From sequence record PZ452602.1: DNA of 64,000 bases. One strand, 5' to 3'. The position numbers were made by a program, and so were the translations under genes. Of this stretch, positions 1-3,032 are shown piece after piece (within the stretch, counting starts at the first letter, position 1; every line of letters begins with the position of its first letter). Source of the stretch: a phage. The notes below the pieces were generated by a model that saw nothing but the letters and a program-made list of their open reading frames with translations, had not been told where the DNA came from and searched no databases.

Positions 1-171
1 GCCAAGTTCTTCATCACAATTAAAGAGTTTACCAGGAGAAATAAATTTCTCATCTTGGATCATTTTTAAAATATGTTCTAACGGAAGATTATATTTCTGA
101 GCAAAATAAGGAAGGCCTGATTGCCAGCTTAAACATACTCCATCAATATCAGTTAAAATAGTAGGCTTCAT
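1..171 (-). CDS. HAD-superfamily phosphatase-like protein, N-terminal fragment (gene continues beyond window start)
   Basis: Minus-strand ATG at 171 overlaps stop of the upstream ORF (ATGA); translation MKPTILTDIDGVCLSW carries HAD motif I (DxDGV). Not in ORF track because truncated. Confidence 0.45.
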   Translation of the reverse strand, partial: MKPTILTDIDGVCLSWQSGLPYFAQKYNLPLEHILKMIQDEKFISPGKLFNCDEELG

Positions 172-632
172 AGAGAGTCTCTTAATAGGTTTAACACATC
201 AATAAATTCAGCTTCGGTTAGTATTGTATCATCTTTTGTTAGACCACTAGCCATGCTGTGCTTCAAAACTTTTCCTTTCGAGGCTTGTAATGCATCACGA
301 AAGCCCTTGTTTTGAATCGCTGCTTCAAAATATGCATTTGTGTATAATTCTTTCCACGCCGGGGAGTATCTTGAAAACGGAACTCCAAGCCAGAAGAGGG
401 TCCCACGGTCTTGAGCTCTAGCATAAGACCTTCCAGCTTGTTGAGCGGCAAGCCCGGATAACCCAAATATACGACGTTGTTGTTCAACATTTTTCACCTT
501 GCATCCTTGGAGGAATCCTTCAAGACCTCCAAATTGAATACCATCCATAACGAAAGGCCATTGGGCGAAATTACTTAATGCACATGATGGCCACCTAAAA
601 TTGCTTCTAATCTCTAACTCAGACATTTTCAA
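168..632 (-). CDS. NADAR/YbiA-like protein (154 aa), 30.3-like position
   Basis: Track ORF; segment LSNFAQWPFVMDG...EGFLQGCK resembles the SNF-x-WP...DG...E-x-FQ-x-K core I recall for E. coli YbiA/NADAR; by memory only. Confidence 0.55.
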   Translation of the reverse strand: MKMSELEIRSNFRWPSCALSNFAQWPFVMDGIQFGGLEGFLQGCKVKNVEQQRRIFGLSGLAAQQAGRSYARAQDRGTLFWLGVPFSRYSPAWKELYTNAYFEAAIQNKGFRDALQASKGKVLKHSMASGLTKDDTILTEAEFIDVLNLLRDSL

Positions 633-825
633 TGCTTATAATTTCAACATCAGCCCAATGACCATAGCAAGGAAGACGAAATTCAACTGGCCAGTTAGGG
701 TCCTTTTCTAATATAATAGACTCAACTTGTGATTCTTCATGTTCATCAGTATATGGATTTTTATCTGTTACTTTATATGTGACCTTAATGTACTGAATTC
801 CAAAAATCTTATTAATTATATTCAT
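619..825 (-). CDS. hypothetical protein (68 aa)
   Basis: Track ORF collinear with minus-strand operon; overlapping stop/start with neighbours; no motif recognised. Confidence 0.45.
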   Translation of the reverse strand: MNIINKIFGIQYIKVTYKVTDKNPYTDEHEESQVESIILEKDPNWPVEFRLPCYGHWADVEIISIENV

Positions 826-1019
826 ACTAATTCCTTTAATCCGTAGATAGGAGATAATTCATCACCCATACGAAGGTCTTCATTTCCATCTACCCAGGAA
901 ACAATATAAGCCTCTTTTATTTGAATACTACTCCATTTAAATGGAGGTAGAACCTTAGAAATTAATCCAGGTATACCAACTCCCTTTAATTCAACGGTTT
1001 GACCTAAAAAGAATTTCAT
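822..1019 (-). CDS. hypothetical protein (65 aa)
   Basis: Track ORF, ATGA-type overlap with neighbours. Confidence 0.45.
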   Translation of the reverse strand: MKFFLGQTVELKGVGIPGLISKVLPPFKWSSIQIKEAYIVSWVDGNEDLRMGDELSPIYGLKELV

Positions 1020-1306
1020 TAGAACCTCATCTGAAAACCGTGCGATTTAACATTACCGCCGCCAATATCAGAAATGTTAATTTCACGCGCAATTGAAGGG
1101 TCAATGTCAATTTCGCCATTAAGTTTAATGATAGACAAAGTATCACGCCCATTTACTGTACGGAACTCTAAAGGGCAGACTACATTAACGTAGTTTTTAA
1201 TCGATTCACTGGTAGGTTGCAAATGAGCAGGAAGGTCTTTAGTCGCCTTAGAGAAAACCACTTCACAGAAATTTTTGCGGGTATCAAAATAAGTAGTCAT
1301 AAACAT
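1019..1306 (-). CDS. hypothetical protein (95 aa)
   Basis: Track ORF preceded by RBS GAGGAAAA and an upstream UUCG hairpin. Confidence 0.5.
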   Translation of the reverse strand: MFMTTYFDTRKNFCEVVFSKATKDLPAHLQPTSESIKNYVNVVCPLEFRTVNGRDTLSIIKLNGEIDIDPSIAREINISDIGGGNVKSHGFQMRF

Positions 1307-1346
1307 AGTATTTTCCTCAGTAAGGGGCCGAAGCCCCTGTTTTATT

Positions 1347-1712
1347 TTAAATATTAAATTCGTTAAGAACTACATCAAAGATTGCTTCAAGATGCTCAGG
1401 TTTAGCTCTGTTACTCAGAATATGACGAATCCAAGTTTTAACCAAAAGCTTGCGATTAGCACCATTCCAGCAAGGATGAGTCCCTAAATCACGTTGACGA
1501 AAATCATCATCCAGAGCGATTTTGAAGTTTGAACCTTCCATTGTGATTGAAACCGTGATTCCATTTTCAAATCGCATATAAACGTAATTAGGAGTCATAT
1601 ACTGCTCAATTTCGCATACTGATCCATTTTGATGTTTCCAAAGGCAAATAGTATCAATAGAACCTGCAATACAATTAGAAACATATTTACGTTCAAAATT
1701 GATGTAGTTCAT
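1347..1712 (-). CDS. hypothetical protein (121 aa)
   Basis: Track ORF in collinear minus-strand block. Confidence 0.5.
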   Translation of the reverse strand: MNYINFERKYVSNCIAGSIDTICLWKHQNGSVCEIEQYMTPNYVYMRFENGITVSITMEGSNFKIALDDDFRQRDLGTHPCWNGANRKLLVKTWIRHILSNRAKPEHLEAIFDVVLNEFNI

Positions 1713-1780
1713 TTTTATTCTCCAAGATGTTTAATTGCGGTACAGGTATATAATATCATATCCTGTACCAAAGTAAACAA

Positions 1781-2113
1781 TTATTTTACTACTTTCCAGT
1801 GCTTCATGTCAAGTTTACCGACTTTTTTCATCTTCTCAATTAAGCGTTCGGCACGTTGGCGAGCTGTAACATAATACCATTCGCCTAATTCATTTTGTTC
1901 AATTTTTCCAACGATTACTGTATTCAATTCATAAATCCAACCGGTAAAGAAATTATGAACTTGAATTGTAAAGGTGAAATCTGTTCCCATACCTTCTGTT
2001 GTTTCTACTTCAATAATATCACCTTCAACTGCCATTAAGAACCACATAGTTTCATCATATTTACCATTGAAGCATTTAGTTTTAACTGCAGCGTTCAGAT
2101 TAATCGTTTTCAT
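1781..2113 (-). CDS. hypothetical protein (110 aa)
   Basis: Track ORF; RBS AAGGAG upstream; early promoter at 2140-2170. Confidence 0.55.
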   Translation of the reverse strand: MKTINLNAAVKTKCFNGKYDETMWFLMAVEGDIIEVETTEGMGTDFTFTIQVHNFFTGWIYELNTVIVGKIEQNELGEWYYVTARQRAERLIEKMKKVGKLDMKHWKVVK

Positions 2114-2139
2114 TTTATTCTCCTTTGTTTGTGTAAGAT

Positions 2140-2170
2140 AATACTATCACAAAGGAGCTATACTGTAAAC
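2140..2170 (-). promoter_or_regulatory. T4-type early promoter (-35 GTTTAC, -10 TAGTAT-like)
   Basis: Minus-strand GTTTAC at 2165-2170, 17-nt spacer, A/T-rich -10; same architecture as about 17 other sites in the window. Confidence 0.5.
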
Positions 2171-2187
2171 AACTTTATGCAATCTTT

Positions 2188-2218
2188 GGAAAATAAAAAA
2201 GGACTCCCGAAGGAGTCC
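2188..2218 (-). terminator. Intrinsic terminator (GGACUCC-UUCG-GGAGUCC hairpin plus U-run)
   Basis: Perfect 7-bp stem with UUCG loop followed on the minus strand by UUUUUUAUUUU, just after the stop of the 2224-2400 ORF. Confidence 0.6.
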
Positions 2219-2223
2219 TCAAC

Positions 2224-2400
2224 TTATGCTTTCTGCTTACCAAAACGAGAAGCATCATCTCGAAGAACCGCACGTGCTCGGCGCATGATCTTCTCAACAG
2301 TTTGATTGATACGAGAGTTCGACCCACGCTTGTAGCCAGCGCGTTTAGAATCACCAACTTTCTTTTCAACTGCTTTCTTTGCTTTAGCTTGTTTTGCCAT
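2224..2400 (-). CDS. small basic protein (58 aa; MAKQAKAKKAVEKK...)
   Basis: Track ORF 2224-2442 trimmed to the internal ATG at 2400; lysine/arginine-rich; followed by a terminator. Confidence 0.4.
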   Translation of the reverse strand: MAKQAKAKKAVEKKVGDSKRAGYKRGSNSRINQTVEKIMRRARAVLRDDASRFGKQKA

Positions 2401-2644
2401 TATAAATTCTCTTTTAAATGAAAATGCAGGACTTATTGGCATTGCCTGCGAAAGCCCTCAAAGGGGTACTTAGGTTTTGAATATTTACCGACAGGATAAC
2501 CATAAACCCGTCATCATTCACATTCAAGAGGTACACCATAAAACTGCCGGGGTCTTAAAACTATAATGATTCGCAAATCATTAATCAGACAGTTCGATGG
2601 CTCCTCGATTTTAGCTCACACTAAGGCAGTGAATCTCCAATAAA

Positions 2645-2893
2645 TTACTTCAGTGTTACCACAAAGTGACGAACTGCTTTTCGTGCAGCAGAAGCCAGAG
2701 GCTTAGCATACTTAAGTTCATCTTTTTCCTGAAGCTCAGCGGCTAATGCAGTTTGAGCAGGATTCAGATGTTTGAAATAACGCAGGATTTCAAGAGCTTC
2801 GGCTTCAACATCAATAGAAGCGCCATAGTTTTCGTGACCATTATTCCATGCGTTTCGTTGCAGTTCAAGAGCGTGTTGTAATTGTTTAATCAT
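2645..2893 (-). CDS. rIII: rIII lysis-inhibition accessory protein (82 aa)
   Basis: Length and sequence (MIKQLQHALELQRNAWNNGHENYG...) match recalled T4 rIII; lies between 30.x block and gene 31 as in T4. Confidence 0.8.
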   Translation of the reverse strand: MIKQLQHALELQRNAWNNGHENYGASIDVEAEALEILRYFKHLNPAQTALAAELQEKDELKYAKPLASAARKAVRHFVVTLK

Positions 2894-3032
2894 TTAAAAA
2901 TTCTCGTTAGAGATTAAAACTCGGTAGTCACGTTCTTCTGAATTTCATCTTCTTTCGACAGATCTCTCAGTTGTAGACTACCACATAGAATTGTTCGGTT
3001 AACTTATTATTCCGACACCCAATTCATATTAT

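Follow-up and report, generated by a model that had tools for sequence, protein, structure and literature searches.

Gene 30.3 of bacteriophage T4 was recently given the name adfN, which stands for 'anti-DarT factor NADAR' (Johannesman et al., Nat Commun 2025, PMC11825919). Deletion of adfN makes T4 sensitive to DarTG1, and resistance to DarTG1 among T-even phages tracks full-length adfN alleles (PMC11825919). RB69, which carries a frameshifted allele without the last 15 residues, is DarTG1-sensitive; it can be rescued by ectopic adfN, and the substitutions E36A and K43A weaken this rescue (PMC11825919). Purified AdfN strips ADP-ribose from DarT1-modified DNA (PMC11825919), and the T4 protein hydrolyses guanosine-ADP-ribose and not thymidine-ADP-ribose (PMC11125620). 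Full effectiveness of AdfN is seen only during T-even infection, and AdfN is no substitute for DarG1 in uninfected cells (PMC11825919, PMC11125620). Phage NADARs have a histidine where YbiA has a glutamate and the DarG1-type enzymes an aspartate (PMC11125620). The methods of that paper give the T4 gp30.3 construct as residues 1-208, as against a maximum of 154 codons in the open reading frame; the construct length probably reflects a tag or a typing error.

The role of adfN was also apparent in HIDEN-SEQ, a transposon screen of T4, in which insertions in 30.3 were lost on DarTG1 (log2FC -7.25) and insertions in 30.4 were mildly depleted (log2FC -1.79, adjusted p 0.014; bioRxiv 10.1101/2025.11.20.689424). 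Since the end of 30.4 overlaps the start of adfN by 8 nt, the depletion of 30.4 insertions is likely a polar effect on adfN.

Here we analysed a phage locus at which 30.3 is followed by 30.2, a gene with a HAD signature. An initial annotation, made from the sequence, had proposed that the two products act together in removing and processing ADP-ribose adducts. We conclude with considerable confidence that 30.3 encodes AdfN, a DNA glycohydrolase that counters DarTG1, and that 30.2 encodes an independent HAD-fold phosphatase that is a mere neighbour. Activity and phenotype in this conclusion come from the T4 literature; identity, fold and motif conservation come from the present analysis.

Results

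A compact T4-like gene run at the start of the window

The window, by which we mean the whole 64,000-nucleotide stretch of phage DNA analysed (record PZ452602.1), starts with the DNA of a T4-like phage (Tequatrovirus). In a megablast search with its first 3 kb, RB27 was the best match at 99.4% identity; 945 phage records matched, 468 of them with at least 80% query coverage. Every gene of this 3 kb lies on the minus strand and the order is that of T4 (30.2, 30.3, 30.4 ... 30.9, rIII, 31, 31.1, 31.2, cd). The window opens within the early-gene run cd-31-rIII-30.9...30.3-30.2-30.1-30 of such a phage. The features at its edge are collected in Table 1.

Table 1. Features at the start of the window (positions in the window; minus strand throughout)
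Feature	Position	Strand	Basis or remark
Gene 30.3 (adfN), predicted 152-aa NADAR-family DNA ADP-ribosylglycohydrolase	171..626, stop codon 168..170	(-)	T4 gp30.3 identity, PF08010, fold
Gene 30.2, 5' end, 57 codons; predicted HAD-superfamily hydrolase with motif I D8-x-D10-G-V	1..171	(-)	Remainder beyond window edge
ATGA overlap of 30.3 stop codon and 30.2 start codon	168..171	(-)	Direct sequence reading
8-nt overlap of 30.4 end and adfN ATG	619..626	(-)	Sequence, ORF list, AR1 annotation
30.3', 75-aa ORF inside 30.3 in another frame	263..490	(-)	T4T record: internal translation, different reading frame
Gene 30.4	619..825	(-)	Upstream neighbour of adfN

The initial annotation had correctly recognised two open reading frames joined by an ATGA overlap, and had the order wrong: it placed the HAD gene upstream, and 30.2 lies downstream of 30.3. 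Both frames are on the minus strand. Overlaps of this kind are frequent here. An ATGA junction is also found at 822..825, between 30.5 and 30.4, several more are present in the AR1 annotation, and overlaps of 1, 4 or 8 nt join most genes of this run.

A scan for promoters and terminators yielded sites no more common than in shuffled sequence and was set aside. On the transcribed (minus) strand, a G+C-rich hairpin with a UUCG tetraloop occupies 1323..1338, between 30.7 and 30.6. A second G+C-rich UUCG hairpin on the same strand, at 2199..2220, is followed by a T-run and lies just downstream of a 72-aa open reading frame (2224..2442) that corresponds to 30.9 by gene order.

Most phage records that match window positions 1..3000 label both 30.3 and 30.2 as hypothetical, and unrelated feature names ('putative baseplate hub', 'DprA-like') occur at some of the matching records. 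For 30.3, database annotation is behind the AdfN papers.

Gene 30.3 belongs to the NADAR superfamily

The program-made list of open reading frames gives 30.3 as 168..632, a 154-aa frame that begins with TTG. This is the length on which the initial annotation relied, and it holds for the TTG start at 632; in T4 and AR1 the annotated gene begins with the ATG that here lies at 626, which yields a protein of 152 aa (MSELEIR...) and agrees with the published residue numbering of E36 and K43. The protein, in which ALSNFAQWPFVMDGIQFGGLEGFLQGCK is found, is identical to T4 gp30.3 at 151 of 152 positions, the sole difference being I125M, two residues from H123.

In a Pfam scan, the protein matched PF08010 (Phage_30_3) with an E-value of 2.3e-70, and gave no direct match to the Pfam NADAR family PF08719 even at E <= 1. 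With such an E-value for PF08010, and 945 phage records matching the DNA, chance can be dismissed as the source of the observation. A single-sequence phmmer search of the PDB likewise returned nothing meaningful for the 30.3 or the 30.2 protein. As the NADAR scan and the single-sequence search were both empty, we turned to profiles of the family and to predicted structures. PF08719 was matched by 23 of 61 gp30.3 relatives (best E-value 1.5e-7), and a profile of the gp30.3 family matched E. coli YbiA (E 0.006) over the SNF...E...Q..K core. The NADAR assignment made in the initial annotation thus failed formally as a direct PF08719 match and held up transitively and by structure. In the absence of a direct match, placement in the superfamily rests on PF08010, on these intermediates and on the fold.

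The residues implicated in catalysis, whose absence would have spoken against the assignment, are present. Across the 61 relatives E36 and H123 do not vary, and K43 is conserved in at least 90%; E36 and K43 align with the corresponding Glu and Lys of YbiA. An AF2 model of the protein was of high quality (pLDDT 93.2, pTM 0.88) and places H123 at the end of the strand formed by residues 120-122. The C-terminal helix (residues 138-151), which is missing in RB69, is intact. In a Foldseek search of the PDB, the only high-probability matches of the model were three solved NADAR structures: YbiA (2b3w), PnNADAR (8bau) and GlNADAR (8bat), with YbiA at the top (E 3.4e-5, TM 0.68). Thus, the NADAR/YbiA-like core noted initially is borne out by fold and profiles, as it had been in print for the 99%-identical T4 protein, and gene 30.3 belongs to the NADAR superfamily, in the phage gp30.3/AdfN clade.

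The rank of YbiA among the structural matches is one of the points that would favour another substrate. Arguing from gene context, Iyer et al. (2022) made a case for soluble substrates, and until 2023 such proposals were current for phage NADARs: the enzyme would mainly hydrolyse soluble ADP-ribose derivatives or intermediates of the riboflavin pathway, with de-ADP-ribosylation of DNA as a side activity. The failure of AdfN to replace DarG1 in uninfected cells could be read in the same way. We regard this explanation as very unlikely, since both the removal of ADP-ribose from DNA and the counter-defence against DarTG1 have direct support from biochemistry and from genetics, HIDEN-SEQ included (PMC11825919, PMC11125620). 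The role against DarT that was put forward from the sequence of the present locus is the one published for T4 30.3 in these same papers.

Gene 30.2 encodes a HAD-fold protein

The window holds 57 residues of gp30.2, all 57 identical to T4, out of a full length of 278-279 aa in relatives; MKPTILTDIDGV is found in this N-terminal part. Motif I is the only HAD motif within the window, and it was from motif I that the gene had been assigned to the HAD superfamily. The assignment proved sound. In an alignment of 45 gp30.2 relatives, motifs I-IV are conserved: there is no variation at D8, D10, G11, K132, D150 or D151, and T96, the residue of motif II, is kept in at least 90%. The structural model, confident over residues 1-200, shows a HAD Rossmann-like core with a cap domain and matches known HAD folds. 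The tail beyond about residue 200 (to 279) is of variable length, aromatic- and proline-rich and predicted to be disordered (pLDDT <50), and is absent from many relatives.

Profile searches were less informative. Full-length gp30.2 (AR1 and T4-type) had no match in Pfam at E <= 1. Weak Pfam matches were present among the 45 relatives, to PF00702 in 10 and to NT5C in 7, and in PHROGs gp30.2 matched just families of unknown function and, weakly, a polynucleotide kinase. The gp30.2 family profile matched the deoxyribonucleotidase structure 2jao at a marginal E-value of 0.015, and fold comparison gave TM-scores of 0.63-0.70 on the target. These results indicate that gp30.2 is a genuine HAD-fold protein; by sequence and modelled fold combined, its closest relatives appear to be the 5'(3')-deoxyribonucleotidases. 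A literature search on 'gp30.2' found no papers.

The adjacency of 30.3 and 30.2 is not a conserved module

The pairing proposed initially amounts to a two-enzyme module in which the NADAR protein frees ADP-ribose from DNA, the HAD protein processes the product and translational coupling synchronises the two. Such a module would be in keeping with the apparent dependence of AdfN on some T-even factor. In the T4 transposon screen, however, where we confirmed the identity of the DarTG1 data sheet, insertions in 30.2 were neutral on DarTG1 (log2FC -0.12, p 0.61, 71 sites) whereas those in 30.3 vanished (bioRxiv 10.1101/2025.11.20.689424). Since 30.2 insertions were neutral, gp30.2 was ruled out as a necessary T-even cofactor of AdfN. 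The rescue of RB69 by ectopic adfN alone also argues against the module, though RB69 may have a 30.2 of its own.

Gene order was a second line of evidence. Both genes are widespread in Straboviridae, where 30.3 and 30.2 co-occur (in 1511 and 1440 phage records, the counts per genus being nearly the same). Of the 77 loci seeded with gp30.2, 37 had a gp30.3 homologue upstream, on the same strand and no more than 4 kb away, some of them in distant Acinetobacter- or Aeromonas-type phages. In the other 40 loci gp30.3 was not near. Seeding viral contigs with gp30.3 gave a gp30.2 within 4 kb in 23 of the 81 loci scanned, and in phage vB_ECC_MY742 a distance of about 120 kb separates the two. Co-occurrence at the level of the genome was accordingly ruled out as a sign of linkage, as two genes this widespread can sit that far from each other. 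The adjacency of NADAR and HAD genes is not a conserved module.

The ATGA overlap remains as a real feature that the module would explain. Since overlapping junctions are routine in this run, it carries little weight, and it was ruled out as a sign of partnership because similar junctions join most genes of the run. Moreover, we know of no chemistry that needs a phosphatase after guanine de-ADP-ribosylation. The module is largely refuted as to the necessity of 30.2, and we hold it to be highly improbable as a whole. The idea that the HAD enzyme acts on what the NADAR enzyme releases did not survive: 30.2 is neutral on DarTG1, the adjacency is not conserved and ATGA overlaps are commonplace.

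A different neighbour is far more constant. In 71 of the 77 viral loci, gp30.2 is followed directly by the ATP-dependent DNA ligase gene 30 in the same orientation, so that the linkage of gp30.2 to the ligase gene is far tighter than its linkage to adfN (71/77 against 37/77). This opens the possibility that gp30.2 is tied functionally to the ligase or to nucleotide metabolism, as a phosphatase of nucleotides or DNA ends, and that its adjacency to adfN is incidental. A gene order shared by members of a single virus family is, however, weak evidence of a common function; moreover, 30.2 is non-essential, insertions being found at 72 of 72 sites in the T4 transposon data, and its comparison between M9 and LB revealed no phenotype (log2FC -0.10). 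We therefore offer the tie to gene 30 tentatively, as a reading that has some chance of being right. Insertions in 30.2 were also neutral on DarTG2 (log2FC 0.00). What can be said is that gp30.2 is a conserved, predicted HAD phosphatase encoded beside a DNA ligase gene, with no phenotype in the DarTG1, DarTG2 or M9 screens.

A more specific proposal, which we consider doubtful, is that gp30.2 is an NT5C-like HAD phosphatase, catalytically intact, that has the DNA ligase gene rather than adfN as its conserved partner across Straboviridae, in a role undescribed so far. If this were true, the role might be, for example, control of the nucleotide pool, removal of a nucleotide alarm signal or healing of ends before ligation. 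A weaker variant would have gp30.2 contribute redundantly to the T-even specificity of AdfN.

Discussion

The reading that we prefer, an AdfN glycohydrolase with an unrelated phosphatase gene next to it, would work as follows in this phage. AdfN, a small protein of the NADAR fold, would cleave the N-glycosidic bond that links ADP-ribose to guanine in DNA, with E36, K43 and H123, the histidine typical of the phage clade, as the putative catalytic residues. By doing so, it would erase the marks that host DarT1 places on replicating phage DNA and would permit growth of the phage on DarTG1 hosts. Genes 30.3 and 30.2 would lie side by side in a compact early transcription unit, and their products would act independently; gp30.2 is predicted to be a HAD-fold phosphatase that has a C1 cap and an intact catalytic site, nearest to the 5'(3')-deoxyribonucleotidases.

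The function of AdfN in this phage is one that we infer from T4 on the strength of near-identity of sequence, and we likewise infer the independence of 30.2 from adfN. Since the gene is full-length and both the catalytic residues and the C-terminal helix are intact, the phage is predicted to resist DarTG1. The neutrality of 30.2 in one screen leaves room for a contribution of gp30.2 that may be redundant or specific to certain conditions.

Papers of 2024-2025 had already reported, for the same gene, that a phage NADAR removes ADP-ribose from DNA and so opposes DarT, and the locus adds no new biology in this respect. The practical value of the analysis lies in annotation: adfN, which is mostly 'hypothetical' in databases, is present at full length in this phage.

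Comparison with known systems

Gene 30.2 has its closest described counterparts in the NT5C family, represented by mouse and human cdN (2jao, 4yih) and the Staphylococcus epidermidis protein 3bwv. It shares with them the HAD core, the helical C1 cap and the DxDGV form of motif I; it differs in that its profile scores to the family are only marginal and in having an additional C-terminal tail, variable and disordered, that is about 80 aa long.

Among NADAR proteins, E. coli YbiA (2b3w, PF08719) is the best fold match of AdfN and shares the SNF...E...Q..K core in the profile match. Identity between the two is 17%, AdfN does not match PF08719 directly, and the last strand of YbiA has a Glu; a role in the hydrolysis of riboflavin intermediates has been described for YbiA (Iyer et al. 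2022). The NADAR domain of Geobacter lovleyi DarG1 (8bat) and the Phytophthora NADAR (8bau) are about 14-15% identical to AdfN and have in common with it the fold and the Glu/Lys catalytic pair; all hydrolyse guanine-ADP-ribose, an activity measured for AdfN on the T4 protein. DarG1 has an Asp in the last strand, whereas the phage clade has a His. Furthermore, DarG1 is encoded beside its own toxin, whereas AdfN is an orphan that does not protect uninfected cells.

By far the closest system is AdfN of T4 itself. The locus and the neighbouring genes are the same, E36, K43 and H123 are shared, the C-terminal helix is intact in both and identity is 151/152. The one departure is the conservative substitution I125M, and proteins identical to that of the present phage are found in phages teqskov and PaulHMueller.
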